From: Gemmatimonadota bacterium
GTDB lineage: Bacteria > JAAXHH01
Direction: 5' to 3'
Length of the DNA: 49,306 nt
Assembly (NCBI GenBank): GCA_026713285.1
Contig: JAPOOT010000231.1
Location: 1-49,306, forward strand
In this document: piece by piece, positions 13,939 through 46,730 of the stretch
Position numbering within the stretch: position 1 is the first letter of the stretch
How the letters are laid out: each line of letters starts with the position of its first letter
The notes under the pieces: generated by a model
Seen by the model: only the letters and a program-made list of their open reading frames with translations
The model's database searches: none
What the model was told of the DNA's origin: nothing
Program-made: the position numbers and the translations under genes

Positions 13939-15402
13939 CTACACGGCATAGGGCGGGAACTCGTGGGTGTGGCTTTGTGCGGCTTCGTTGCTCAGTTTTC
14001 CGTCGCGCATGAAGTCCTTCTCCCGGCCCTGCTCCACAATCAGGTTATGTAACCGGTCCCGAAGGATCCGCGCTCTCGGATGATCATCGCTATAGAGGTT
14101 CCGGCACTCGAGCGGATCTTCCTGTAGATCGTAGTACTCGAACTGCCCCGTCCGGTAGTGCCAGATGAACTTCTCCCGGTGGTCGACAAGGTAATGTCCG
14201 AACTCGAGATGTTCCGCGTGCAGATGCTCCCGGTCCAGTCGGCGCGTCTCGTCCCGCACGAGCGGCATGAGCGAACGGCCGTCCATGCGGCCGGGCGCGG
14301 GCAGGCCGCACACGTCCAGCAGCGTGGGCATCAGGTCGGCTAGTCCCACGGTCGTTTCGGGGTATTGGACGCCGGCGGGGAAATCCAGCTGCGCGGGGAA
14401 ATTCAGGACGAAGGGCACGCGGATCGAACCCTCGTAACCGTAGGACTTGGCCCAGTAATGGTGATCGCCCAGCATGTCGCCGTGGTCGCCGACGAAGGCG
14501 AAGACGAGATTGCGCAGCTGGAGCATGCGCCACATGTGATACGTGAACCGCGTGATCTGTGTGTCTACGTGATCGATGCAACCGTAGTATCCCGCCCGGG
14601 CCCGCCGGACGTCTTTAGTTGAGCGCGGGAGATACTCGGCTTCCGGGAAGGGGCCGTGGGCCTTGACGAAGGGCGTGCGTCCGCTCACGTAGCGGGACGG
14701 ATCGCCAATCACCGGATCGGGCAGGTCGGGGTCGCCGGCGTATCGCTCGTAGAAGAAAGCCGGCGGATCCCAGGGCGGATGGGGCTTGCTGAAGGACAAG
14801 AAGAGAAAAAAGGGCGTGTCCCGGCCGTGGTCCCGGACGTGCTCGTCCATCACGCGTATGGCCTGGGTGGCCGTCCATGTCGTCACGTGGAATTCCTCGG
14901 GAAATACGCAGGGACGGGCCGTGTACCCATTGTTGGTCACGCCCGCGTTGAACAGGCCGAAATCGCCCCAGCCCTGTTCGGCAAGCCAGTCCAGGTAATC
15001 GTCGCGGAATCCGGGTGACAGGTACCGGCCTTCCTCGTGGGCGACGATGCGGTCGAAGCCGTAGGGGGCGTCCTGGGGATAGACATGCCTTTTCCCGATG
15101 CAGTAGGTCTTGTAACCGTTTCGCTGGAATACCCGGCAGAGCGTGTCCGGTTCGTCCCACGCCATCATGTCGTTGAAACCGACCATGCCGTGGGTGACCG
15201 GCCACTGCCCGCTGAAGAGCGTCCGGCGGGCGCCCACGCAGGAGGGAACCTCGGAGACCGCGCTGGGGAAGTAATGTCCGCTATGGGCGAGGGCGTCGAT
15301 CCCGGGCGTGTGGACCACGGGGTGGCCCGCTATGCCCAGGGTGTCGCCGCGAAGCTGGTCGGCGCAGATGAGGACGACGTTGGGTCGGGCGTTACGTTTC
15401 AT
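13939..15402 (-). CDS. Type I sulfatase-family hydrolase with non-canonical active-site motif
   Basis: PNVVLICADQLRGD N-terminus, PSCVGARRTLFSG at the formylglycine motif position, and GKRH, FSKPHPP and VGDHGD blocks. No signal peptide. AAGGA precedes the ATG. Confidence 0.85.
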   Translation of the reverse strand: MKRNARPNVVLICADQLRGDTLGIAGHPVVHTPGIDALAHSGHYFPSAVSEVPSCVGARRTLFSGQWPVTHGMVGFNDMMAWDEPDTLCRVFQRNGYKTYCIGKRHVYPQDAPYGFDRIVAHEEGRYLSPGFRDDYLDWLAEQGWGDFGLFNAGVTNNGYTARPCVFPEEFHVTTWTATQAIRVMDEHVRDHGRDTPFFLFLSFSKPHPPWDPPAFFYERYAGDPDLPDPVIGDPSRYVSGRTPFVKAHGPFPEAEYLPRSTKDVRRARAGYYGCIDHVDTQITRFTYHMWRMLQLRNLVFAFVGDHGDMLGDHHYWAKSYGYEGSIRVPFVLNFPAQLDFPAGVQYPETTVGLADLMPTLLDVCGLPAPGRMDGRSLMPLVRDETRRLDREHLHAEHLEFGHYLVDHREKFIWHYRTGQFEYYDLQEDPLECRNLYSDDHPRARILRDRLHNLIVEQGREKDFMRDGKLSNEAAQSHTHEFPPYAV

Positions 15403-27974: not shown

Positions 27975-29666
27975 GTGCGTGTGATTCCAGGCCTCCTTCT
28001 GTGCATTCTCCTGCTCATTATTCCGGTCCTTCAATTCGCACAAGACGATCCGGCCCATCCAGGGGCTGCAAAGCAGCCTGTCAATGCGGTCGGCAAGACT
28101 ATGCCTCCGGATGCGGCGCCCCTCGCGCGGCAGGTTTTCTCCTTTCACCTGCCCGAGCCCACCACGCTCGATATCGGGATTGCCGTCTACGAGGCCACCG
28201 GTGCGGTGTTTTCCTTCGAAGGCCTTACCCGGCTAGACCACAATAACGAGTTGCTGCCGGCCGCGGCCGATCGATGGGAGCCAACTCCCGGCGGAACGCG
28301 CTGGACCTTCCATCTGCGCAGGGGCGCGAAGTGGAGCGACGGCAGACCCGTCACCGCGCACGATTTCGAATATGCCTTCAAGCGGATGGTCGATCCGGCC
28401 AGCGCGAACAGAAACGCGTCCTTTTATTACGAGATAGAAGGGGCTAAAGCCTTCAACCAGGGATTGACCCGGCAGGCGGATTCCGTCGGCGTGAAGGCCA
28501 TCGATGACTACACGCTGGAAATTCGAACCACGCTGCCCTGTCCCTATCTTCCCTACATCGCCTCCTTCCCCACCTCCGTCCCGGTCCCCCGCTGGCAAGT
28601 GGAGAAATACGGCCCCGCCTGGTCCGAGGCCGGCCGGTTCGTGACCAACTCCACCTTCAAGCTGGATTCGTGGGATCACGGTTCCCGCTTCGAATTCGTG
28701 CTGGACCCCAACTACAACGGTCCACACAAAGGGTACGTGGAACGGATCGTCGGCAAGTTCCTGGATACCCGAATGATGGCCGGCGGCACGCTGTCCTACG
28801 AAAACGACGAGATCGACATGCAGGACGTAACCCCCATCGATCTTCCCCGCGTCAGGAGACATCCTAGGCTATCGGGTGAACTGGACGTCAGCAAGGATTT
28901 CATGACCCATTTCCTCTTCTTCAACGCGGACTATGCACCTTTTGGCAATCTGAAGGTGCGCCAGGCGATCAGCCACGCGATCGACCGGCAGGCTATCTGC
29001 AGGGTGCTTCTTCAGGACCTGGGCGAGCCCGCCTATTCCATGCTTCCGCCTGGGTTTCCCGGCTACGCCGGCGGCAAGTACAGGGACATCCAGCGATTCG
29101 ATCCGGACCTGGCCAGACTGCGGCTGCGGGAGGCGGGTTACCCGGAGGGACGCGGGTTTCCCCGGATCGAGATGTGGATCAATAACATGGCCAGGCAACA
29201 GGTCGGTCAGGCCATTCAGGAGATGCTCAAGACCCACCTGGGCATCGACATGTCTATACGTGTCGTCGAGAACATCTCCTACCGGACCGCCCAGTACCAG
29301 CGAAAGATCCCCTTCAGCCTGATTCAGTATCATTACGACTACCCGGATCCCAACAACATGCTCGCCATGGTCTGGCGGTCCCAGCCGGCCGGATACAGCC
29401 GCCATCCCTGGGTAAACGCGGCATTCGACCGCCTCGTGGACGAAGCGGCTTCGGAAATGGACGTAGCCAGGCGATTCCGCCTCTACGACGAGGCGCAGCG
29501 GATCCTCTCCGAGGACGCAGGCGCCGTATTCCTGTATTACGGCAAGAAGGCTTCACTGCGTAAACCCTGGCTCAAGGGCATCAAGCGGGACCGTGACGGC
29601 GAATACCCCTTCTGGGGCAACAACACGGGCTATTTCGATATCTATATCGGAGAAGGCGGGCGGTAG
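27975..29666 (+). CDS. ABC transporter substrate-binding protein, family 5 (peptide/nickel/opine type)
   Basis: Signal peptide RVIPGLLLCILLLIIPVLQFAQ. Family-5 blocks W(T/S)FHLR.GAKWSDG.PVTA.DF and N..Y.GP, with size ~560 aa. Confidence 0.85.
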   Translation: MRVIPGLLLCILLLIIPVLQFAQDDPAHPGAAKQPVNAVGKTMPPDAAPLARQVFSFHLPEPTTLDIGIAVYEATGAVFSFEGLTRLDHNNELLPAAADRWEPTPGGTRWTFHLRRGAKWSDGRPVTAHDFEYAFKRMVDPASANRNASFYYEIEGAKAFNQGLTRQADSVGVKAIDDYTLEIRTTLPCPYLPYIASFPTSVPVPRWQVEKYGPAWSEAGRFVTNSTFKLDSWDHGSRFEFVLDPNYNGPHKGYVERIVGKFLDTRMMAGGTLSYENDEIDMQDVTPIDLPRVRRHPRLSGELDVSKDFMTHFLFFNADYAPFGNLKVRQAISHAIDRQAICRVLLQDLGEPAYSMLPPGFPGYAGGKYRDIQRFDPDLARLRLREAGYPEGRGFPRIEMWINNMARQQVGQAIQEMLKTHLGIDMSIRVVENISYRTAQYQRKIPFSLIQYHYDYPDPNNMLAMVWRSQPAGYSRHPWVNAAFDRLVDEAASEMDVARRFRLYDEAQRILSEDAGAVFLYYGKKASLRKPWLKGIKRDRDGEYPFWGNNTGYFDIYIGEGGR

Positions 29667-29918
29667 TGGCACAGACCCTGCCGCCGAGACCATTTCGGTT
29701 TGACAATACCCGAGGTGTGGGTACATTCAGGGAGATGCGTCGGGTCCAGGGATCCAGGGGATGGACGGGTCGCACCCGGACCGGTACGATTCTTCGTCAC
29801 CATCTCGAAAATCGGAATCGTTCAGGCAACACCATGCGCGGCCACACCAGTCGGCCGCCAGGATTTACCGTACCAGTTGTCTGAGATTTACCATATCAGT
29901 TGGCAGAAAGGACATTCG

Positions 29919-30908
29919 ATGAAAGCGGGACAGGTGGTCGCTCAGGAACGCATCGAAATCGTGGAATCCGAACGGCCGGACCTTGCGCTGGAACGCACCA
30001 ATCCGGACGCGCTCAGGGACATGGTGCTCGTGCGAACCGTAAACGCCGCCATTTGCGGTAGCGACCATCCGTTGTTTACGGGCCCGGCAAACTATCCCGC
30101 GGCCCCGGGCGTATCCCTGCATGAGAGTATAGGCGTCATCGAGAAATCGTGGGCGCGTGGATGCCGGGAAGGCGACCTCGTCCTGGCCCTGCCATCCGGC
30201 TCGAGCGCCATGGCCGAGTATTTCCTTGGATTCGGCGCGTCCGTGACCCCCCTGCCGGAGGATGTGCCCCAGGAACAGTCGCTGATGGCCCAGCCCCTGG
30301 GTACCGTGATATATTGCCTGCGTAAACTGGGCCACTGGTTCAACGCGGAAGTCGCTATAGTCGGCCAGGGTCCCATGGGTCTGCTCTTCACGGCCATGAT
30401 GTGGAACCTCGGCGCTGCACGGATCATCGGTATAGACCAGCACGACAACCGGCTTGCCGCCGCGAAGGAGATGGGGGCGACCCACACCGTGAACACGGCG
30501 AGTACCGATCCGGTGGAGGCCGTGAACGAGATCACCGATGGGCGCATGGCAGACGCGGTGATCGAAGTCGTGGGCGTTGAGGAGACCTTCAACCTGTGCG
30601 TCAGTCTGGCCAGGCAGGATGCGCGGTTCATCAACTTCGGCGTGCCCAAGACATCGCGGTACACGGTCGACATGATGGAACTTTTTCGAAAGAACCTGCA
30701 ACTGACGACTTCCGTGGGACCGGATATGCATATCGACTTTGCCAGCGCCATGCGCATGATTGGCGAGGGCCGCGTCGACGTTTCGCCAATGATCTCTCAT
30801 AAACTGCCTTTCGCCAGGGTCCAGGAAGGCTTCGAAATGGCCACGAAACGCAAGGGCGAGTGTATCAAGATCGTGGTGGATTTCGAGGAAAAGGGCCTGG
30901 GAAGGTAG
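29919..30908 (+). CDS. Zn-dependent medium-chain dehydrogenase (threonine/sorbitol dehydrogenase-like)
   Basis: NAAICGSDH (catalytic Zn Cys/His context) and a VGQGPMGLL Rossmann motif. ATG 29919 is preceded by AAAGGA. The 73 upstream codons in the track ORF have no family counterpart. Confidence 0.8.
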   Translation: MKAGQVVAQERIEIVESERPDLALERTNPDALRDMVLVRTVNAAICGSDHPLFTGPANYPAAPGVSLHESIGVIEKSWARGCREGDLVLALPSGSSAMAEYFLGFGASVTPLPEDVPQEQSLMAQPLGTVIYCLRKLGHWFNAEVAIVGQGPMGLLFTAMMWNLGAARIIGIDQHDNRLAAAKEMGATHTVNTASTDPVEAVNEITDGRMADAVIEVVGVEETFNLCVSLARQDARFINFGVPKTSRYTVDMMELFRKNLQLTTSVGPDMHIDFASAMRMIGEGRVDVSPMISHKLPFARVQEGFEMATKRKGECIKIVVDFEEKGLGR

Positions 30909-30979
30909 TCCAGCGAAAGTTTACCGGACTGTGCGTGGGCTGTTCATGGCGCACTGGAGACGCTTGGAGGTACGACGTC

Positions 30980-32839
30980 ATGCGTAAGAATACGGGTACG
31001 GCGGCAAAGGCCGTTGCGGTTTGTTTGTTCGCCTCCCAGATCGCCTGCGGCGGCGGCGAAACGACGGAAGATCCATGGAACAAGGTACAGGCGATCCTGG
31101 CTGAATCGAGGGATACGGTCGTGCTCGATGGTACCGAGAAGGCGGCGCTGAAATACGCGGGGACGGACGAACCGGAGTTCGGCGACTGGATGGTACGCCA
31201 CGCCCTGTCCGATCCCGAAAACTTCAATCCCTACACGTCGAGCGACCAGGGCGCCACGCAGGTTCACACCTATGTCTTCGAGTCCCTGTTGGAGCCGGAC
31301 TACGATCCGCCCTACACCCAGCGTGGATATATCGCGGTGGACTATCCGTCCGTATCGGAAGACAAGCTCACCTATACCTTCCGTCTGCGCGAGAACGCCC
31401 ATTTCGCGGACGGCGTTCACTTGACGGCGGATGACGTGCTCTTCAGCATCAAGACCATCCTGACCCCGACCGTGCGGGCGCCGCACCTGCGAAACTATTA
31501 TGCGTCGATCGTAAACGTCAGGAAACTTGGCGATTACGAGATCAGTTTCGAATGCAGGGAACCCTACATCCTGAACGATCTCTTCCTCGGCGGCTTCGAT
31601 ATCCTTCCGCGTCACTTCTACGATCCGGACGGCCTGCTCGATCCGGTGACGATCGGGAGCCTCATCGACGGAAGCTGGGAAGCGGGTGGACACGCGGACC
31701 GGGTACGGCAATTCGGCGAACGGTTCAACCAGGATTTCAACCGCCGCATGCTTGGTTCGGGGCCCTACGGCGTGGCGGACTGGGAGAATGACGTGCTCAC
31801 CGGACAGCGGGTCGTACTCAGCCGGAACGAGAACTACTGGGGCCGGGAAGTGGACGGGCTCCCCCCCGCGGGTAATGTGGACAAGGTAGTCTTCAAGATT
31901 ATAAACAACCTGGACGCCGCTTTCATCGAACTGACCAACGGCAACCTCGATCTCCACGGGATGAAGCCCCTCGAGTTCAAGGAGAAGAGCTGGTCCCCCG
32001 ACTTCACAGACCGTTTCATGAAGGGCATTCAGTACGCGGGAGGCTACACGTATATCGGGTGGAACAACGACCATCCCATATTCCGGGACCGGCGGGTCCG
32101 CCAGGCGATGACCCACCTTACAGATCGTGAATCCATGGTGCGCAACCTGCTCTTCGGACTCGCGGAGACGGTCGAAAGTCCCATACACAAGTTCCGGCCC
32201 GAGTACAATCACGACCTGCAACCCTACGCTTTCGACCCGGACCTGGCCCTGTCTCTCCTGAACGAGGCAGGATGGTCGGATTCGGACAACGACGGGATTC
32301 TCGACAAGGAGATCGACGGCAAAAGGATTCCCTTCCGCTTCGAGTTTCTCGTCAATTCGGGAAACCAGCTCAGGAAGGACATCGCGCTTACGCTTCAGAG
32401 CGCCCTGGAAGACCTCGGCATCGACTGCCAGGTACGCGAACTGGACTGGTCGATATTCCTCGAAAGGGTAAAGGACAAGGACTTCGCTGCCGTGACGCTC
32501 GGCTGGAGCGGCGGTACGGGTCTGCGTTTCCCGCCGGATGCCTACCAGATCTGGCATTCGTCGCAGATCGAAGGGAACGGATCGAACTTCGTCAGTTTCA
32601 GGAACGAGGAATCCGATGGGATCCTCGAAGTCTACCGGACGGATTTCGACATGGACCGGCGGATTGAATTATATCGGCGTTTCCAGGAAATCCTCCACGA
32701 GGAACAACCCTATACCTTTCTATGGAAATCGCGCGTCGCCAGTGCATACAGCCGGCGCTTTCATGGCGTAAACTGGTATCCGGCCGGCGCCGTGAACCAG
32801 GAATGGTGGGTAGAGCCCACCGACCGGATGTATCAGTAA
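30980..32839 (+). CDS. ABC transporter substrate-binding lipoprotein, family 5 (second copy)
   Basis: MRKNTGTAAKAVAVCLFASQIACGGG is a signal peptide with a lipobox-like IAC. Family-5 blocks YTFRLRENAHFADGVHLTADDV and NENYWG are present. GGAGG lies 10 nt upstream of ATG 30980. Confidence 0.85.
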   Translation: MRKNTGTAAKAVAVCLFASQIACGGGETTEDPWNKVQAILAESRDTVVLDGTEKAALKYAGTDEPEFGDWMVRHALSDPENFNPYTSSDQGATQVHTYVFESLLEPDYDPPYTQRGYIAVDYPSVSEDKLTYTFRLRENAHFADGVHLTADDVLFSIKTILTPTVRAPHLRNYYASIVNVRKLGDYEISFECREPYILNDLFLGGFDILPRHFYDPDGLLDPVTIGSLIDGSWEAGGHADRVRQFGERFNQDFNRRMLGSGPYGVADWENDVLTGQRVVLSRNENYWGREVDGLPPAGNVDKVVFKIINNLDAAFIELTNGNLDLHGMKPLEFKEKSWSPDFTDRFMKGIQYAGGYTYIGWNNDHPIFRDRRVRQAMTHLTDRESMVRNLLFGLAETVESPIHKFRPEYNHDLQPYAFDPDLALSLLNEAGWSDSDNDGILDKEIDGKRIPFRFEFLVNSGNQLRKDIALTLQSALEDLGIDCQVRELDWSIFLERVKDKDFAAVTLGWSGGTGLRFPPDAYQIWHSSQIEGNGSNFVSFRNEESDGILEVYRTDFDMDRRIELYRRFQEILHEEQPYTFLWKSRVASAYSRRFHGVNWYPAGAVNQEWWVEPTDRMYQ

Positions 32840-32917
32840 TCGCACGTTCCAGCACCTGTCCGCACCCGTGATGACGCGCGCAACCGACCATGATCCAGGC
32901 CAGGATCATAGGCACCT

Positions 32918-34219
32918 ATGCTCGGTTACATCCTTCAACGCTCACTGCTCATGGTCCCCACGCTCGTCGGGATCACGGTGATATCCTTCTTCATTATGCA
33001 CCTCGCTCCAGGCGATCCCGTGGACCTGTTCCTCGGCGGTGTGGCCGGCGGCGAGGGACTCGCTTCCGACCGCCAGCAGGATATCGAGAAGACACGGCAG
33101 GAACTGCGCAGGCAACTGGGCCTGGACCAGCCTGTCCACGTACAGTACTTCAACTGGGTCACTTCGCTTTTCCTGAAAGTCGAATCCATCAGTACCTTCG
33201 ATCGCAGCGCAATGCGGGCGGACCGGTTGCTGGAACGGCTCGAGGCGTCGGAACGCCGGGCGCTGGCGGGACTGGACAGAGCGGACCAGAAAGAACGGTT
33301 CCTTGTCCTTGTGCGGGAATTGGCGCCAGCGGATGCAAGCGAACTGGAACGATCTTCTTTCTGGGAAGGGAGGACCTTCAGCGCCGAGGGCAACTACACC
33401 TACAGGGGCGCGGGTATAGAACTCGCCAAACTCGCCGGATACCGCTTCGTCACGTTGGATTTCGGCCGTTCTTTCAAAGATAACCAGCCCGTCATCGGCC
33501 GGATCATGGAGCGGCTGCCCGTAACCCTCGAGATCAACATCATCGCCGTCATAATCGCCTATCTGGTCGGCCTGCCCCTCGGTGTCTGGCTTGCGGTAAA
33601 GCAGAATACCCTCACGGACAGGGCACTGACGTCCGGCACTTTCGTCCTCTGGTCCATGCCCTCTTTCTGGGTGGGCATGCTGCTGATCATATTCCTGTGC
33701 AACCGGGAGTTTTTCTACTGGTTTCCGGCATCGGGCATACAGTCGCTCGAAGCCTCCGGCGACTGGAGTGCCTGGCGGATCCTCACGGATCACATGTACC
33801 ACATGTTCCTGCCCGTACTGGCCTCCGCCTATATCAGTTTCGCGACGATTTCGCGGTTCATGCGGACGAGCATGCTGGAGAACCTGCGCCAGGATTACGT
33901 GCGGACCGCCCGAGCCAAGGGATTGTCGGAAAAAGTCGTCATCCTGCGCCACGTGTACCGCAATTCCCTGATACCGATCGTGACCACGTCCGCCGGGTTG
34001 CTTCCGGCCATGATCGCGGGGTCCGTATTCATCGAAACGATATTCACCATACCCGGTATGGGGCTGCTCGGATTCGAGTCGGTGCTGAACAGGGACTATC
34101 CCATGGTCATGGCGATATTCACCATCGGATCCCTGCTTTCGCTCCTGGGCATCCTGGTGGCGGACATACTGCTCAAAGTGGTCGATCCAAGAATCACTTT
34201 CGACCAGTTGCAGGGTTAG
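32918..34219 (+). CDS. ABC transporter permease (DppB/OppB-like) with enlarged first external loop
   Basis: MLGYILQRSLLMVPTLVGITVISFFIMHLAPGDP N-terminus and the EAA-type loop YVRTARAKGLSEKVVILRHVYRNSLIP. At 433 aa it is longer than I expect for this family, because of an insert after TM1. Confidence 0.85.
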   Translation: MLGYILQRSLLMVPTLVGITVISFFIMHLAPGDPVDLFLGGVAGGEGLASDRQQDIEKTRQELRRQLGLDQPVHVQYFNWVTSLFLKVESISTFDRSAMRADRLLERLEASERRALAGLDRADQKERFLVLVRELAPADASELERSSFWEGRTFSAEGNYTYRGAGIELAKLAGYRFVTLDFGRSFKDNQPVIGRIMERLPVTLEINIIAVIIAYLVGLPLGVWLAVKQNTLTDRALTSGTFVLWSMPSFWVGMLLIIFLCNREFFYWFPASGIQSLEASGDWSAWRILTDHMYHMFLPVLASAYISFATISRFMRTSMLENLRQDYVRTARAKGLSEKVVILRHVYRNSLIPIVTTSAGLLPAMIAGSVFIETIFTIPGMGLLGFESVLNRDYPMVMAIFTIGSLLSLLGILVADILLKVVDPRITFDQLQG

Positions 34220-34229
34220 GAGATCGGCA

Positions 34230-35312
34230 GTGGGATCGAACCCGGACATAAAAAAGGAAATAGCGGCCGAAAACGGCATGCCCTTCGACGCGGTAGAGAA
34301 TGAAAGCGGCGAAAGCTTCTGGCGGTTGACGCGCAAGGAGTTCCGCAAGAACCGTCCGGCACTGTACAGTCTATATGTCCTCGCGGCCATGGCCACAGTC
34401 GCGCTTACTGCCGACCTGATCGCCGGCAACAAGCCGTATTACATGGTGTACGAGGGAGAAACCTACTTCCCTGCGTTTCGCCAATACGCGGTGTATACCG
34501 GCCTGATGGACTGGCCAGAGGAATTGAGGACGCGGAAGAACTTCAAGCGGTACGCCTACAGCGACGCGGTGTTTCCCATCATCCCCTACGCGCCGGACGA
34601 GATCCAACTCGGCGAAAGCTACGAACGGCCGGGAGGCGCACATCTCTTTGGCACGGACCGCCTTGGCCGTGACGTGCTGGCCGGACTCATTCACGGCACG
34701 CGGTACTCGCTGACCATCGGGCTGGTTTCGGTGGGCATTTCCCTGCTCATCGGCGTGGGACTCGGCGCGCTGGCGGGATTCCTCGGCGGGTGGACGGATC
34801 TGTTTCTGTCCCGGGTGTTCGAACTATGGGCGGCGATACCTCCCTTCTTCCTGATCATCACCGCGGCGGCCTTCTTCCCGCCGAGTCTCTTCTGGATCAT
34901 GATCATCATCGGATTCACGGGATGGGTGGGCATCGCCCGGTTGACCCGGTCCCAGTTCCTCCAGATCCGGGCCTTCGACTACATCGCGGCCGCACGGGCC
35001 CTGGGCTGTTCGAATCTGCGCATCATGGCGGTGCACGTCCTGCCCAACGCCATCGCGCCCGTGCTGATTCCCGCGGCTTTCGGCGTGGCCGGCGCCATCC
35101 TGGCCGAATCGGGACTGAGCTTCCTGGGCATCGGCGTACCCGCCGAAGTCATCACATGGGGATCGCTGCTGGCCGGCGCGCGCAGCAATATCGCGGCCTG
35201 GTGGCTGGTGATCGTGCCCGGATTCGCCATTTTCATCACGGTAACCCTGTACAACCTGCTGGGAGACGGATTGCGCGACGCCCTCGACCCGAGGCAGCGC
35301 GAAGCCGCATAG
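34230..35312 (+). CDS. ABC transporter permease (DppC/OppC-like)
   Basis: [19 protein letters not shown], and [29 protein letters not shown] (EAA loop). GTG 34230 is preceded by AGGAG. Confidence 0.85.
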
Positions 35313-35319
35313 GAGTAGC

Positions 35320-36309
35320 ATGCCGAATACAATCCTGCGCGTCTGCGACCTGAAGACTTACTTCGACACCGAGAGCGGCGTGGTACGTGCCGTCGACGGC
35401 GTCAGCTTCGAGGTGGAGGCCGGCAGGACGCTGGGCATCGTGGGAGAGTCCGGATGCGGCAAAAGCATGACCGCCTATTCAATCCTGGGCTTGATCCCGC
35501 AACCTCCCGGCCGCATCGCCGGTGGCGAGGTGTTTTTCGAGGACAGGGACCTGCTGCAACTCACTTCCCGCCAGATCCGGGAGATTCGAGGCAACGACAT
35601 CGCCATGATCTTCCAGGAACCGATGACTTCCCTGAATCCCGTATTCACCGTCGGCGAACAGATCGCCGAAGCTATCCGCCTTCACCGGGGCGCCGACCGG
35701 AAGGAGGCCTGGCGGCGGGCCGTAGAGCTGTTGGACCTGGTCGACATCCCGCTGGCGGAAGAACGGGCCGGAAGCTATCCCCACGAACTCAGTGGAGGCA
35801 TGCGCCAGCGCGCGATGATCGCCATGGCCATCTCCTGCGATCCCAAGCTATTGATCGCCGACGAACCGACGACGGCGCTGGACGTTACGATTCAGGCACA
35901 GATTCTCGATGTGCTGCGTCGTCTGCAGGAAGAACTGGGCATGGGACTGATGCTGATTACCCATGACCTGGGCATCGTGGCCGAGATGGCGCACGAGGTA
36001 CTGGTCATGTACGCGGGCCAGGTCGTGGAACAGGCCGACGTCAAAACGTTATTTGGCAGTCCCCGCCATCCATACACCCGCGGGTTGCTCGCGTCCGTGC
36101 CGACCATGAGCTCGGGTACAGAGGAACTTTCGACCATCGAGGGCACGGTACCCGACCCCGTGCGCTTCCCTGCCGGATGCCGTTTCGCGCCGCGCTGCGA
36201 TTTCGCGGCGGAAGCCTGCGACCGGCCGCAGGCGCTACTGGACGTGGAGGGCCGCCACGTGGTCCGTTGCGGCGAATGGCAGCGGGTTTCGCAGAAGGAT
36301 ATGGCCTGA
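35320..36309 (+). CDS. ABC transporter ATP-binding protein (DppD/OppD-like)
   Basis: Walker A GESGCGKS, signature LSGGMRQR, Walker [13 protein letters not shown], and a C-terminal oligopeptide-type extension ([10 protein letters not shown]). Confidence 0.9.
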
Positions 36310-36311
36310 CC

Positions 36312-36362
36312 GAGTGTGGAAGATGACGGAATGTGGGAAATGACGGAGTGTGGGAAATGACG
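36312..36362. repeat. 17-bp tandem repeat, 3 copies (GA(G/A)TGTGG(A/G)A(G/A)ATGACG)
   Basis: Units lie at 36312..36328, 36329..36345 and 36346..36362, read directly. The array fills the spacer between the two ATPase genes. Each unit carries an ATG, and the last one (36357) is the in-frame start candidate. Confidence 0.9.
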
Positions 36363-37361
36363 GAATCGACTGACCTGTTGTTAAAGGTACAGGGTCTGAA
36401 GAAACACTTCCCCGTGGGAGGCGGACTGCTGCGGCGTCGCCGGACGGTGATTAAGGCCGTAGACGGCGTCGATCTTTCGCTTCAGCGAGGCGAAACGCTG
36501 GGGCTGGTGGGTGAGAGCGGGTGCGGCAAGACCACGATAGGGCGGGCCATTATGCGCCTGATTCATCCGTCCGCGGGAACCGCCACCTTCCATACCGCAC
36601 TCGAGGACGGTCAGGAAAGAAGGCCGCACGAAGTTTTTACCATGAAGAAAGGCGATCTCCGGCGGCTGCGACGCCAGATGCAGATCGTATTCCAGGACCC
36701 CTACGGCTCCCTCAACCCCCGTATGACCGTGGGTTCCCTGCTCCGGGAACCGCTTACCGTTCATGGATTGAGTACGCGGGGAGAAGCTGGAGACCGCGTG
36801 GCCGACCTGCTCGAAACGGTGGGCCTGAATCCCGCGCACGCACGCCGATATCCCCATGAGTTCAGCGGCGGCCAGCGACAACGCATCGGCATCGCCCGCG
36901 CCCTGGCCGTCCGGCCCGAACTGATCATTGCCGACGAGCCGGTCTCGGCGCTGGACGTATCGATCCAGGCACAGATCATCAACCTGCTCAAGGTGCTGCA
37001 GGAACGGTTCCGGCTCAGCTATCTCTTCATATCCCACGACCTTCGCGTGGTGCGGCATATCAGCGACCGGGTGGCCGTCATGTATCTCGGCAAAATCGTG
37101 GAAACGGCCACAAGAGATCAGCTCTACGCGAAACCGCTTCACCCCTACACTACGGCCCTGCTCTCGGCCGTGCCCCTGCCCGATCCCACGCTGGAACGCG
37201 ACCGGACCATCCTCAAGGGCGACGTGCCCAACCCGGCGGCCATTCCCCCGGGGTGTCCCTTCCATCCCCGGTGCCCCCTGGCGGAAGCCCGATGCAAGAC
37301 CGAAGTCCCCGCGCTGGAAGACAAGGGTAACGGCCACAGGGCGGCGTGCCACCTGATCTGA
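36357..37361 (+). CDS. ABC transporter ATP-binding protein (DppF/OppF-like)
   Basis: Walker A GESGCGKT, signature FSGGQRQR, Walker [13 protein letters not shown]. The start is either ATG 36357 or the track GTG at 36333. Confidence 0.9.
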
Positions 37362-39574: not shown

Positions 39575-40378
39575 TTATTCCGTACCCGCCCCGAACACCT
39601 GCGTGCGCCACATGATCCGCCGCTGCCGGTCGTCGAACGGCGTGCGGCGGTGCATGGTGCAACGGTTGTCCCACATGACCAGGTCGCCCACCTGCCAAAT
39701 GTGCTTCCATACAAAACGGGGGTCGATTGCGTGGGCGATCAATTCGTCCAGCAGTGCCTGGCCGACCTCCCGTTCCATACCGGCGATACGATAGATCAGG
39801 TGAGGGCTGACGTAGATCACGTCGCGGCCCGTTTCCGGATGAGTGCGAACGACCGGATGCATGGTGGGCTCGGGCGTATTCAGCGCGTCGATAGGATGGC
39901 GGTGGACCGCGCTCAGACCGTTGATGCGGGTCTGCACATCGGGGTTCAGCGCCTCGTAGGCAGCGTATCCGTTGGCCCACATCGTCTCGCCGCCCTCGTC
40001 GGGGATCTCCAGCGCGTACAGCAGCGAAATTGTCCCCGGCTCAGGCAGGTAGGACAGATCGGAATGGAAGGGAATTCCTTCACTGCCAAGTGCTCCGATG
40101 GGTTTGCCGTCCTCGGTCACGTTGGAGATGACGAAGATCTCCTCTATGGGACGGTCTGGTTGCGGCCTCACGTGAGGTACGGGTTCACCGAAGTACCGGG
40201 TAAACCGAACCAGGTCCGGCTGGCTGATCACCTGATCGCGAAAGAACAGCACGCAGTGATCGAGGAATGCCGCGCGAAGCCTGCCAACAGTATCCTCGTC
40301 CAAATCGCGGCGCAGATCCAGGCCGGTAACTTCCGCGCCTAGCGCGCCTCCGGTCGGTATGACTTCGAAAGTAGTCAT
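39575..40378 (-). CDS. TauD/TfdA family Fe(II)/2-oxoglutarate dioxygenase
   Basis: GAEVTGLDL, FHSDLSY (HxD), and WDNRCTMHRR near the C-terminus. ATG 40378 (MTTFEV) is preferred over the track GTG at 40408. Confidence 0.85.
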   Translation of the reverse strand: MTTFEVIPTGGALGAEVTGLDLRRDLDEDTVGRLRAAFLDHCVLFFRDQVISQPDLVRFTRYFGEPVPHVRPQPDRPIEEIFVISNVTEDGKPIGALGSEGIPFHSDLSYLPEPGTISLLYALEIPDEGGETMWANGYAAYEALNPDVQTRINGLSAVHRHPIDALNTPEPTMHPVVRTHPETGRDVIYVSPHLIYRIAGMEREVGQALLDELIAHAIDPRFVWKHIWQVGDLVMWDNRCTMHRRTPFDDRQRRIMWRTQVFGAGTE

Positions 40379-40459
40379 TATTCCCCGAAATCGCTGATCT
40401 ACATTCACAATCGATTGCGGCTTCGTGATTTTCCAGGTTTCCCCGCAGCTTCACATCCG

Positions 40460-41023
40460 TCAAACATTCGTCGCGTTCGGTTCGTCCCAGAACGCTTCCA
40501 GTTCCACGCCCAGGCCGTCCACCGTCCGGTTGCACCAGGCGAAGAAGCCTGTGATCTGGTTGATCTCCAGGATCGCCTTGTCTCCGAAACCCGCCCGCCT
40601 CAACTGCTCGATATCCGATTCGGATGTGGAAGCGGGCGCCAGGGTCAGTTTGCGGACGTAGTCCAGCATGGCGCGGTCGCCGTCGTCCAGGTCCGCCTCG
40701 CGGTAGTCTCTCTTGATCGCATCCACCAGTTCGCGGTCGTCGATCTCTCTGAGGAGCCCCTCCCCATGATGGCGGATTCAGTACTCGCACTCGTTCAGAA
40801 CCGAGACGGTCGTCGCGATCATCTCCCGCTGCCCCAGCGTGAGGTCGCAGTCCCCGTGCATGAGGCCCTTGTAGAAGGTCATAAGCGCTCTCAGCGCCTG
40901 CACGTTCAGGCTGTGGACCTTGATGATGTTGTCCACGCCTCCCCAGGATCGCATCGATCCCTGGTAGATTCTTTCCAGTGGGCCTTCCGCTTCCGATTCG
41001 TCAATGGTGCGTATCCAGGCCAT
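40460..41023 (-). CDS. AhpD-like / carboxymuconolactone decarboxylase-family peroxidase-related protein; candidate selenoprotein with in-frame TGA at 40778..40780
   Basis: Track ORFs 40778..41023 and 40460..40726 share one frame. They are separated only by one TGA and 17 sense codons. Joined, they give 187 codons with the full family layout. The TGA replaces the second Cys of CxxCxxxH (VLNE-C-E-Y-TGA-I-R-H-H). Confidence 0.6.
40750..40766 (-). promoter_or_regulatory. Candidate bacterial SECIS-like hairpin
   Basis: The mRNA 12-28 nt after the UGA is U-GGGGAG-GGG-CUCCUC-A. It can form 7 bp including one G-U pair, with a G-only apical loop. This was folded by eye only. Confidence 0.35.
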
Positions 41024-41043
41024 GGCCGTCTCCTGTGGGTTGA

Positions 41044-41892
41044 CTACAGTCCGAAGTGACGCCGCATCCGGGTTACGGCGGCCTTTTCGTCTTTGCTCAG
41101 CGACTCCAGTTCATACTCCTCTTCGGTGATCTGGTCCCGGTAATCCTCGAAGGGCAGTCCGCCTTTGCCGCTTTCATTGAAATAGGCGCTGAGCTGATAG
41201 CGCTGGAAGATGTTCATCCTGGGACAGTCCTGGGTCCAGGCCGCGGCATCGTGCAACAAGTGGGTCGAGAAAACGAGGACGTCGCCCGCGTCCATGGGCA
41301 CGGTGATCGATACGGACGGATGGTCGCCGACCTTGAGTGCGTCCGGCGTGCCGAAGGCCGACTTGTGGCTGCCCGGCACCAGGCTGAACCCGGTGCCCGC
41401 CGGCACATCCGCCAGCGCGATCCACGTGGCCAGGTGGCTGCAGTAGATCTCCCCTCCCGCCGCCTGGTAATCGTTGTGGGGATTCCGGAAGCCCGGGGGG
41501 AACTTGAAGCCGCTGTCATCCCTGTGATAGGCCTGAGCGTCCGCGTCGCCCGGCGCGGCGCGGTCCATTTTCGTGAAGTTGCAGTGAAACAGCCGGGGCA
41601 TGCCCATGGTCAGTCCAGCGACCACGCGGATGATCTCCGGATCGGCGTTCAATTCCTGGAACAGCCTGTGCCCGTACTGGATATGGTCCAGGTGTGTCTT
41701 GTAGGGCTCCTGCCGATGCCTTAAGACCGGCGCGGGGATATCGGATTCGTCGGCGGACAGCCAGCGATCGACCACCTCCAGGATACGGCCCAGTCGCTCC
41801 GGCGCAATCACGCCGCGCAGGTGAAGGTATCCCTGAAGGTCGAAATGCCACTTTTCGTTATCGGTCAGCAGATGAGCGTAAGGCGACGCCAT
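41044..41892 (-). CDS. Phytanoyl-CoA dioxygenase (PhyH) family oxygenase
   Basis: WHFDLQGYLHLRGVI N-terminal pattern, YHRDD (HxD), VPGSHK, and HLLHDA (distal His). Confidence 0.8.
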   Translation of the reverse strand: MASPYAHLLTDNEKWHFDLQGYLHLRGVIAPERLGRILEVVDRWLSADESDIPAPVLRHRQEPYKTHLDHIQYGHRLFQELNADPEIIRVVAGLTMGMPRLFHCNFTKMDRAAPGDADAQAYHRDDSGFKFPPGFRNPHNDYQAAGGEIYCSHLATWIALADVPAGTGFSLVPGSHKSAFGTPDALKVGDHPSVSITVPMDAGDVLVFSTHLLHDAAAWTQDCPRMNIFQRYQLSAYFNESGKGGLPFEDYRDQITEEEYELESLSKDEKAAVTRMRRHFGL

Positions 41893-42056
41893 AAACGGTC
41901 TTCTCAGTAATAGGCCGGCGTAGGTTACATCTGCGCCAGGTTCGCGACGAGGTTGTACGTAAACCAGCCATCACCCGTTATGAAAGTCTGCGGCGTCGCG
42001 GTCACGGCCATGTGCCAGTTTCCGTCCGCCTGCCCGTCAACCGGCACGATCGAAGT

Positions 42057-44589: not shown

Positions 44590-46730
44590 ACGTGAATGAA
44601 GTTACGATTTTAAAGGTGAGTCCGGACTGGCTAAACGGATTCCGGTCAGCGCCCATTCGCGGAATCAGCGAAGATGTGCTTGCCATATGGCAGACGATGG
44701 GACGTAATTTACACAATTCGGACCGGGAAATCCAAGGCGCAGTGTGTGATAATGAGCCTGGTTATGCCCTGGAGATAACCCCGGTAACCCCGGTAGCTAG
44801 TTTTCTGCATAGTCATTGTATTGTCAACGGCTTCATGTTATACTTCCAAAAACCTTGGCTCGCCCTGGCTCACCTCTCATCGTGCAGGAATAGCCGCGTA
44901 TCTTCTCCGGTAGCGACGCGTCGCCGCTTGGAAGAATCCTTTTGTGTTGGATCCCGAAGGTGTTGAGTTGTGAATTTCAATACTAGCAATGAAACGTTTC
45001 GGCAGCTCATGGGCAACGGGTTGAGTTATCACGTGCCCAGGTTCCAGCGGGATTACTCCTGGGATGTCGATGAGTGGGATGATCTGTGGCAGGACATCGT
45101 CGGTTTGTTCGGAGACGGCGCTGAATCCGCACACTACATGGGCTACCTTGTACTTCAATCTGCTGACAACAAGGTATTCGATATTATCGACGGCCAGCAA
45201 CGAATGACGACGCTCAGCCTGTTCATGCTCGCGGCGGTTTCCCATCTTACAGACCTCGCCGCCCCTGATGCTCCCAACGATCCCCAGTTCCTCCGTGCCG
45301 AACAATTGCGTAGCAGCTATATCGGGTATCTGGATCCTGTGAGCCTTGTTCCGCAGTCCAAGCTCACGCTTAACAGACACAACGATAGTTACTATCAGAA
45401 CTATCTCGTACCGTTGGATCGCCTGCCGCAAAGAGGGTTGAACGCATCTGAACACCTGCTGCGCAAGGCATTTGTCTGGTTCAAGGATCATATAAAGGAC
45501 TACAGTGGCAGCAATGGCGAGGCTGTGGCAAGATTTGTCGATCATACCGTAGACAAACTGCTCTTTACCGTAATTACGGTCACAGACGAATTGAACGCGT
45601 TCAAGGTCTTTGAGACGTTGAACGCACGAGGCGTTCGATTGTCAGCAACTGATCTGCTCAAGAACTTTCTGTTCTCCGTTGTATCGCGGGAAGCGGTCCA
45701 TGACTCGGAGATCAAGGCGCTTGAAGACCGGTGGGAGTCTATCGTCGAACTCCTTGGCAGCGAAAGCTTCCCCGAGTTTTTAAGGGTATTCTGGAATAGT
45801 CGCAACAGATTGGTTCGCAAGACGGAACTGTTCAAGACAATCCGTAGTGAAATCCAAAACAGGGAAGACGCATTCAGCCTGATACGTGACCTGGACAGGC
45901 ACGCGAGGATATACGCGGCGATACGAAACCCGGACGATACAGCCTGGATGCCGGAAGAACTCGAATGCCTCGAAAAGTTGCAGATGTTCAATGTCCGCCA
46001 GCCGTATGCCGTATTGCTTGCGGTTTTCGACAGATTCGCAGAGAGAGACCGAGGGGGGTTCCGCCGGTTCCTGAACGCGATCGTTGTAGTGTCCTTCAGG
46101 TACAACGTGATCTGTGGGCGTCAGGCCAATGAACAGGAGTTGGTATATAACGGAATCGCTCGAGACGTATCCGCAGGTAGAATCGACGATGTGAACAGTG
46201 CGATTTCCGCACTCAAACCGGTCTATCCGGAGGACAACGAGTTCAAAGCGGCTTTTGCGGAGAAGGTGCTTCGAACGACAAACACTCGAAACAAGAAGGT
46301 AGCACGTTACATATTGTTTCAACTTGATAGGCAACATTCAGAAACTGCCTTCGAGTCCGAGAGCGCGAAGTACGGCATTGAACATGTACTACCCGAAAAC
46401 CCTGGTGACGAATGGGACCAGTTCGATGAACCACAAAGGGAGTCCTCGACTTATCGTCTTGGTAACCTCACGCCATTGGATACTTCCGATAATCGGGACA
46501 TCGGGAACGCCGGCTTCGACGCGAAACGACCAGTGTACGAGGCGAGCGTTTTCTCGATCACGACGAAAATAGCGCAGGAATTTGATACGTGGACCGTAGA
46601 GAAGATACGTTTGCGGCAGCATTGGATGGCCAGGCAGGCGACGGGCATCTGGCGATTGAGTTTGTGACCTGAGATGGAATCTTTAGAGTGCTGAACGTTG
46701 AACGATCGTACAGGTTGTACACAAACGGCA
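44590..46730. other. Lower-GC compositional island carrying a single defence-type gene
   Basis: By eye the sequence here is clearly less GC-rich than the flanking GH32 and cupin genes, with many A/T-ending codons. A 430-bp non-coding leader precedes the gene. No integrase or flanking direct repeats were found. Confidence 0.5.
44970..46667 (+). CDS. DUF262 + DUF1524 two-domain protein (GmrSD-like type IV restriction / His-Me finger nuclease family)
   Basis: N-terminal DUF262 motifs are PRFQRDYSWDVDEWDDLWQDI and IIDGQQRMTTLSL. C-terminal DUF1524 motifs are IEHVLPENP, LGNLTPLD and SDNRDIGNAGFDAKR. GTG 44970 has GAAGGTG upstream. Confidence 0.8.
   Translation: MNFNTSNETFRQLMGNGLSYHVPRFQRDYSWDVDEWDDLWQDIVGLFGDGAESAHYMGYLVLQSADNKVFDIIDGQQRMTTLSLFMLAAVSHLTDLAAPDAPNDPQFLRAEQLRSSYIGYLDPVSLVPQSKLTLNRHNDSYYQNYLVPLDRLPQRGLNASEHLLRKAFVWFKDHIKDYSGSNGEAVARFVDHTVDKLLFTVITVTDELNAFKVFETLNARGVRLSATDLLKNFLFSVVSREAVHDSEIKALEDRWESIVELLGSESFPEFLRVFWNSRNRLVRKTELFKTIRSEIQNREDAFSLIRDLDRHARIYAAIRNPDDTAWMPEELECLEKLQMFNVRQPYAVLLAVFDRFAERDRGGFRRFLNAIVVVSFRYNVICGRQANEQELVYNGIARDVSAGRIDDVNSAISALKPVYPEDNEFKAAFAEKVLRTTNTRNKKVARYILFQLDRQHSETAFESESAKYGIEHVLPENPGDEWDQFDEPQRESSTYRLGNLTPLDTSDNRDIGNAGFDAKRPVYEASVFSITTKIAQEFDTWTVEKIRLRQHWMARQATGIWRLSL

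Follow-up and report, generated by a model that had tools for sequence, protein, structure and literature searches.

Gene structure at the locus

The stretch of DNA analyzed here, referred to as the window, comprises the 49,306 nucleotides (nt) of contig JAPOOT010000231.1 (assembly GCA_026713285.1, Gemmatimonadota bacterium) and carries on its minus strand a gene for an AhpD-like protein in which a TGA codon stands at the second Cys of the CxxC redox motif. The gene occupies a single frame of 187 codons (40460..41023, complete), which runs from an ATG at 41023..41021 to a terminal TGA at 40462..40460 and is interrupted only once, by the in-frame TGA at 40778..40780. We predict that this codon specifies selenocysteine (Sec) at residue 82. 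A Shine-Dalgarno-like AGGAGA (41029..41034, minus strand), recognized from the sequence by its match to the consensus, lies 5 nt upstream of the ATG. A preliminary description of this DNA had joined two minus-strand open reading frames (ORFs) in the same frame, with a single TGA and 17 sense codons between them, into one protein of 187 codons, and we confirmed these coordinates. Indeed, the next possible start after the TGA is a GTG at 40726, beyond those 17 codons, and mechanical ORF calling therefore yields pieces of 81 and 88 amino acids.

The read-through frame spells N-E-C79-E-Y-[TGA82]-I-R-H85-H86-G-E-G-L-L around the interruption. Among the minus-strand codons of the active site, that of Cys79, the first and putatively resolving Cys of the CxxU motif, lies at 40787..40789, that of the proton-relay Glu67 at 40823..40825, and that of the relay His86, four residues past the predicted Sec, at 40766..40768. 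When all six frames of the window were scanned for TGA codons with at least 60 stop-free codons on each flank, this was the only site at which third-position GC (GC3) was gene-like on both sides (0.75 and 0.82). A relaxed scan of the window for further TGA sites gave no other credible site and no second selenoprotein gene; the TGA that follows an SDR gene (42057) was considered as a second site and rejected, as it marks a normal C-terminus.

Protein family and active-site residues

Translation through the TGA yields a complete protein of a known family. With the in-frame TGA entered as Cys for the profile searches, it scored 138.5 bits against NCBIfam TIGR01926 ('peroxidase-related enzyme'; cut-off 81.8), the match spanning residues 2-173 and profile positions 1-173 of 178, and it also matched the Pfam CMD domain (E = 1.4e-10). 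The full-length 'peroxidase-related' AhpD-like layout proposed in the preliminary description is thus borne out. Its scores against NF041238 (AhpD_rel_CFYUT; 43.7, cut-off 175) and NF053654 (YciW-related; 29.2, cut-off 310) are far under the cut-offs, and we therefore assign the protein to TIGR01926 and to neither of those families.

The TGA coincides with a catalytic position of this family. The closest solved structures by sequence, near enough to establish the fold, are 2pfx (E = 1e-28) and 6k40 (4e-26), followed by 3c1l, 2oyo and 2prr (down to 2e-21), and the CxxC motif of the solved homologues (CFYC, CVYC) aligns exactly with C-E-Y-[TGA]. Distant full-length homologues likewise carry C-x-Y-C-x-x-H-H, and in the nine Cys homologues that we aligned E67, C79, Y81, C82, H85 and H86 (window numbering) are invariant. 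Both the structures and the alignment with Cys-containing homologues uphold the proposal that the TGA falls precisely at the second Cys of CxxC. Glu67 does not vary among the aligned Cys forms or among the Sec forms, His86 is invariant, and Cys79 is invariant in all Sec and Cys forms.

These residues correspond to a known catalytic arrangement. The proton relay of Mycobacterium tuberculosis AhpD (MtAhpD) consists of Glu118, Cys130, His132, Cys133 and His137, and that of Pseudomonas aeruginosa PA0269 of Glu36, Cys48, Tyr50, Cys51 and His55 (PMC3141380). At the canonical spacing (E-x11-C for the first two), the window protein has E67, C79, Y81, U82 and H86, with Cys79 equivalent to MtAhpD Cys130 and His86 to MtAhpD His137 (PMC3141380). 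By family and active site, the gene is predicted to encode an AhpD-like (TIGR01926/COG2128) thiol-selenol oxidoreductase.

Conservation of the TGA codon and selection on both halves

To collect orthologues we scanned one genome per species with search patterns that excluded the TGA, and obtained 41 loci. The TGA is present at the same codon in all 41, with both halves of the gene intact, and the loci can be aligned without gaps over ~175 codons at identities down to 51%. By the labels in their record titles these genomes belong to at least eight phyla, and include Gemmatimonadota, Latescibacterota, Acidimicrobiales/Actinomycetota, several Chloroflexota lineages, Cellvibrionaceae, Thermoanaerobaculia, Myxococcales and Planctomycetota. 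The preliminary description had named independent stops or frameshifts in relatives as an outcome that would speak against selenocysteine; we found none. The complete chromosome OX638340.1 shares 14 kb with the window at 94% nucleotide identity.

The sequence beyond the TGA is constrained as strongly as that before it. In comparisons of the window gene with eleven relatives, the ratio of nonsynonymous to synonymous substitution rates (dN/dS) was 0.08-0.21 downstream of the TGA, in the same range as the 0.02-0.19 found upstream, and the shared TGA is conserved under purifying selection.

The TGA also alternates with Cys codons among homologues. When metagenomes were scanned with Cys forms as seeds, 23 genes with TGC or TGT at the aligned codon were recovered along with 20 further genes with TGA, so that 23 Cys forms stand against 20 + 41 TGA forms. 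Two close homologues have TTA (Leu; L048:2001-2546, also L049) or AGA (Arg; L050:99-647) at the Sec codon. Both codons differ from TGA by a single nucleotide, and these loci retain the SECIS-type hairpin sequence described below. Leu or Arg is unable to replace the redox Cys or Sec, and these homologues could be recent inactivating mutations or read errors.

A SECIS-like hairpin within the coding sequence

Insertion of selenocysteine in bacteria would be expected to involve a selenocysteine insertion sequence (SECIS) close to the UGA. The hairpin U-GGGGAG-(GGG)-CUCCUC-A that had been proposed downstream of the UGA is indeed present on the minus strand at 40750..40766, with a 5' arm UGGGGAG (40766..40760), a loop GGG (40759..40757) and a 3' arm CUCCUCA (40756..40750), and it is the centroid structure in RNAfold. 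The hairpin lies within the codons for His86-Gly-Glu-Gly-Leu-Leu-Arg92; 11 nt separate it from the UGA, such that the stem begins at the 12th nucleotide after the UGA. Published constraints on bacterial SECIS elements (bSECIS) are an apical loop of 3-9 nt with G in the first two loop positions, usually preceding G or U, an upper stem of 4-16 bp, a distance of 16-37 nt from UGA to loop, and a minimum free energy (MFE) at or below -7.5 kcal/mol (PMC13188914, Fig. 2). The window hairpin falls within all four published constraints: it has a 3-nt GGG loop, a 7-bp stem, a UGA-to-loop spacing of 18 nt (nt 4-21, with the U of UGA as nt 1) and MFE values of -8.4 (centroid), -9.6 and -10.8 kcal/mol. The corresponding loops in relatives are GGU, GGA, GGC, GGUC or CGGGU.

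We compared the stem-loop codons with 95 other conserved-residue columns in 20 divergent orthologues, and found that nowhere in the gene is synonymous diversity lower than at codons 87-91 (normalized entropy 0.46 versus 0.84). Only two linked sets of codons are used by these 20 orthologues, either GGG-GAG-...-CUC with AGA or GGA-GAA-...-CUU with CGN; each set gives a perfect stem of 6-7 bp, in registers one nucleotide apart. On a neighbor-joining tree built without the stem codons, which lacks resampling support, the second set arose at least twice. Metagenome forms add the compensated stems GCGGAG/CUCCGC, GAGGAG/CUCCUC and ACGGAG/CUCCGU. Two paired substitutions in the protein, G87A and L91R, turn a G-U pair into C-G in the GCGGAG/CUCCGC stem. 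GGAGAA/UUCUCC is a further linked codon switch.

The hairpin accompanies the TGA and not the Cys codon. Counting a hairpin as present if it has at least 5 bp, an apical loop over nt 22-24 and GG within the loop, we found that 52 of the 55 distinct TGA forms carry it but only one of the 23 Cys forms does (Fisher p = 3.5e-15), and the mean folding energy is -8.95 kcal/mol for TGA forms and -4.47 kcal/mol for Cys forms (Mann-Whitney p = 4e-9). Both tests treat related sequences as independent and the p-values therefore overstate the evidence, but the contrast between TGA and Cys forms is still clear despite this kinship.

The two forms differ in the protein as well. Residues 87-91 are G/A-E/A-G-L-L/R in Sec forms and A-E-A-L-x in Cys forms, and the GG of the loop comes from a Gly codon that does not vary among Sec forms and is replaced by Ala in Cys forms, which implies that the RNA element shapes the protein sequence. 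The data already show this predicted SECIS, located inside the coding sequence, dictating residues 87-91 of the protein, with the changes G87A and L91R following RNA base-pairing.

Evidence against selenocysteine and alternative explanations

Apart from the relatedness of the sequences compared, several results weigh against the assignment of selenocysteine. First, the stability of the hairpin, judged for the window sequence alone, is no better than that of dinucleotide shuffles (z = -0.06 and +0.79), and its support is thus comparative rather than thermodynamic. Second, no Rfam SECIS family matched, either in the window at gathering thresholds or in a 700-nt region at E values up to 10; the sole Rfam hit was a spurious match to a long noncoding RNA. 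The absence of an Rfam match carries little weight because bacterial SECIS elements are diverse in sequence (PMC13188914). The compatibility with SECIS elements suggested in the preliminary description stands as far as the published constraints and the association with TGA rather than Cys forms are concerned, and is not backed by an Rfam match. Third, a covariation count in a fixed register over 50 distinct Sec-form sequences gave 79% paired, a value that 0 of 500 shuffles reached, but slid controls were equally high. The count is equivocal for this reason and because hairpins of different lineages sit 1-2 nt apart in register, a slippage that the G-rich and CU-rich arms allow. RNAalifold applied to the majority variant reported one covarying pair only.

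Fourth, no selA, selB, selD or tRNA-Sec gene was found in the 49-kb window or in ~1 Mb of flanking sequence from relatives. The tRNA-Sec search used ARAGORN on the window and 46 loci, and the other genes were sought by tblastn with E. coli SelA, SelB and SelD over the window and the 20-kb flanks of relatives. The only SelA-like match, at 18080..19225 on the minus strand of the window, was rejected as a selenocysteine synthase, with 25 bits against a SelA-model cut-off of 267.9; this gene encodes a SelA-related pyridoxal phosphate enzyme of the DgaE family (D-glucosaminate-6-phosphate ammonia-lyase).

We considered four other explanations of the TGA. The one that survives best, although we give it only a slight chance, is that UGA is read through as a different amino acid (Trp, Cys or Arg), by a near-cognate tRNA or in a reassigned code. 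Several database proteins (P0001, P0004, P0006-P0008 and P0010) have Trp at the Sec position, as this explanation would predict, but the one such entry that was checked against its DNA (L051:1056-1607) has TGA at this codon, and the Trp entries presumably arose when genes on short contigs were called with a TGA=Trp code. In the window itself TGA is an ordinary terminator, ending 16 of the 43 predicted genes, the AhpD-like gene included, so that the codon is not reassigned. Nor would such read-through be expected to fall on the catalytic Cys position or to co-occur with a SECIS-type hairpin.

Somewhat less probable still is that translation terminates at the TGA and restarts, giving polypeptides of 81 and ~88-105 amino acids that assemble, that is, two genes or a split gene. 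In public gene calls from every assembly examined, the gene is either split into an 81-residue 'CMD' and an 88-105-residue 'peroxidase' fragment or has its TGA translated as Trp. A protein search returned dozens of clusters of ~105-residue proteins that start at the codon next to the TGA position (M/V-[RQ]HHGEG...), together with N-terminal fragments ending in ...C-[EH]-Y. In six Acidimicrobiales contigs the N- and C-terminal fragments of the same split abut directly. Four independent assemblies of the same species as the window have identical split calls. The codon after the TGA is GTG in some lineages and serves as the start of the 105-residue products in public calls, but it is AUC, AUA or AUU in most lineages, the window among them, with no canonical start until 17 codons later. 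A restart at that point would leave untranslated the most conserved peptide of the protein, [IV]xHHGEGLL, which contains the relay His86. Furthermore, a split gene gives no reason for a break exactly at the Cys of CxxC, nor for a hairpin that tracks the TGA.

Least credible of the biological alternatives is a pseudogene that lost its function when a nonsense mutation struck the catalytic Cys codon; the preliminary description, too, had argued against a pseudogene. Gene callers everywhere split the gene into ORFs of 81 and 88 or 105 amino acids, and the window has no visible Sec machinery, both of which would fit a decayed gene; however, the 41 loci, from several phyla, keep the same TGA with no other stops or frameshifts, and purifying selection acts on the downstream half as strongly as on the upstream half. 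That TGC or TGT was misread or misassembled as TGA is refuted by the same call in four independent assemblies of one species and in 41 other genomes. Taken together, the shared TGA, the intact and selected halves, the use of TGA as a terminator and the four assemblies rule out that the gene is a pseudogene, that its TGA is an assembly error or that the genetic code is reassigned. We conclude from these comparisons that UGA at codon 82 very probably encodes selenocysteine.

Gene neighborhood

The AhpD-like gene lies between genes for two dioxygenases. Directly upstream is a PhyH-family Fe(II)/2-oxoglutarate dioxygenase gene (41044..41892, minus strand; PF05721, E = 2e-13), which ends 20 nt before the selenoprotein ATG, and downstream is a gene for a TauD/TfdA-family dioxygenase (39575..40408, minus strand; PF02668, E = 7e-68). 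The order is SDR, PhyH, AhpD-like and TauD, all on the minus strand, and there is no intergenic terminator-like site on that strand between these genes. In 21 related species-level genomes PhyH immediately precedes the AhpD-like gene. TauD occurs in 19 related genomes and in 17 of them follows the AhpD-like gene directly, 360-450 nt past the Sec codon. The PhyH-AhpD(Sec)-TauD trio as a whole is conserved in about 20 species-level genomes.

The window contains no AhpC or peroxiredoxin (Prx) homologue, and genetic linkage to a Prx partner is thus absent here. Such linkage is seen in three Chloroflexota, in which a peroxiredoxin gene of the AhpC-TSA type is directly upstream of the AhpD-like CxxU orthologue (L032:9287-9724, L034:8703-9164 and L036:9271-9744). 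These Prx genes have an in-frame stop at the peroxidatic Cys (DFT-x-x-stop versus DATPGC in Cys forms), which is a TGA in L034 and L036, so that with Prx and the AhpD orthologue side by side these genomes hold two gene families with TGA at catalytic Cys positions. We take this adjacency in Chloroflexota as indirect support for the Sec reading.

One explanation for the different neighbors in the window clade, which we consider doubtful, is that the AhpD-like selenoprotein was recruited from its Prx partner to the PhyH-AhpD(Sec)-TauD trio as a dedicated redox helper of the two dioxygenases. Such a helper could remove peroxide by-products or keep both Fe(II)/2-oxoglutarate dioxygenases reduced.

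Several other features of the window were recorded. Between the SDR and PhyH genes is a 40-codon ORF with gene-like GC3 (41925-42047, minus strand), whose peptide is the C-terminal end of a longer ORF in the related loci L007 and L009; it looks like a gene remnant. A type IV restriction endonuclease of the GmrSD family (DUF262/DUF1524), a defense gene with lower GC3 than its neighbors, is encoded at 44970-46667 (plus strand), and oligopeptide-type ABC transporter genes, including two for family-5 solute-binding proteins, occupy 27975-37361 (plus strand). An arylsulfatase-like gene at 13939-15402 (minus strand) reaches 444.7 bits, slightly short of the equivalog cut-off (481). The adjacent ORFs at 19359-20618 and 20651-21913 (plus strand) have weak, sub-threshold matches to models of collagen-like (Scl/Lcl) adhesins; these frames failed the third-position GC filter and may not be real genes.

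Proposed mechanism

We infer the insertion of selenium, the interaction with SelB, the substrate and the reductant from what is established for bacterial selenoproteins and for AhpD. A ribosome paused at the UGA would encounter the hairpin inside the coding sequence, which would act as a bacterial SECIS and recruit SelB-GTP-Sec-tRNA(Sec), and by the established bacterial mechanism Sec would be inserted at residue 82. The resulting C79-x-x-U82 redox center would be set in the AhpD proton relay (E67, Y81, H86).

In MtAhpD the second Cys is the exposed residue that attacks Cys61 of AhpC, while the first Cys is partly buried (PMC6626918). Because Sec takes the position of that exposed attacking residue, Cys133 (PMC6626918), the selenolate would be the attacking group, directed at a peroxiredoxin sulfenate or disulfide or at a hydroperoxide directly, and Cys79 would then resolve the selenenyl-sulfide, as expected from AhpD. 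A reductant would presumably regenerate the enzyme. The pairing of Prx with AhpD in Chloroflexota and the adjacency of Prx-like and AhpD-like genes in Global Ocean Sampling (GOS) reads fit a peroxiredoxin-reducing role (PMC2398784, PMC13188914).

Comparison with known systems

The annotation of this gene as split, or with Trp, has the consequence that selenium use in these uncultured lineages goes unrecorded. The useful outputs of this analysis are a corrected gene model and evidence that the AhpD-like CxxU family is systematically mis-annotated in metagenome-assembled genomes. The locus is also a clean example of a predicted coding-region SECIS that constrains both synonymous sites and the amino acids that it overlaps.

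With respect to bacterial SECIS elements, the window hairpin resembles the consensus of the bSECISearch model (E. coli fdhF type) in lying directly 3' of the UGA within the coding sequence and in having a small apical loop that starts with GG. The fdhF element is roughly 40 nt; the window hairpin, a putative SelB binder, is shorter.

Among proteins, classical AhpD has low sequence similarity to the window protein (PDB 6e8l, E = 0.006). The relay of Cys-type AhpD proteins such as MtAhpD and PA0269, E-x11-C-x-[H/Y]-C-x3-H, is also found in the window protein, in the Tyr variant of the PA0269 type (PMC3141380), and the position of the exposed, attacking Cys133 of MtAhpD is taken by the predicted Sec (PMC6626918). 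Linkage to an AhpC/Prx partner, as looked for in a classical AhpC/AhpD peroxiredoxin system, is missing at the window gene, which adjoins PhyH and TauD instead. The structural relatives 2pfx, 2oyo, 2prr and 3c1l ('uncharacterized peroxidase-related proteins') and the AhpD 6k40 are all Cys forms, unlike the predicted Sec form of the window, and are mostly structural-genomics entries without a defined substrate. The NF041238 and NF053654 (seleno)proteins share with the window protein the AhpD superfamily and the CxxU motif, although it is a member of neither family.

The system to which the window gene corresponds is the known family of AhpD-like selenoproteins, and the preliminary description was right that such proteins are catalogued in computational surveys (PMC1088965, PMC2398784, PMC13188914). 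A report of 2005 on the Sargasso Sea gave 27 AhpD-like CxxU selenoprotein sequences and a predicted SECIS (PMC1088965), 'AhpD-like 1 (COG2128, CxxU)' ranked fourth in abundance among the selenoprotein families of the GOS data with 299 genes (PMC2398784), and a 2026 review lists 'AhpD-like protein, TIGR01926, CxxU' (PMC13188914). In ocean metagenomes these proteins rank with the most abundant selenoproteins (PMC2398784, PMC9312934). A search of the selenoprotein literature for Sec use in Gemmatimonadota gave nothing specific; this silence is a gap in taxonomic coverage and does not point to a new kind of system.

The window gene shares with this family TIGR01926 membership, a CxxU motif with Sec predicted in place of the second Cys, the existence of Cys homologues, and a hairpin SECIS candidate within the coding sequence with G in its apical loop, while the reported adjacency to a Prx selenoprotein (PMC2398784) is present in some of its relatives. 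To judge from its sequence, it is an ordinary member of an already known selenoprotein family and shows every defining feature that was tested. Nothing differs in kind: the window copy belongs to an uncultured lineage whose label is Gemmatimonadota or Latescibacterota, and stands between PhyH and TauD.

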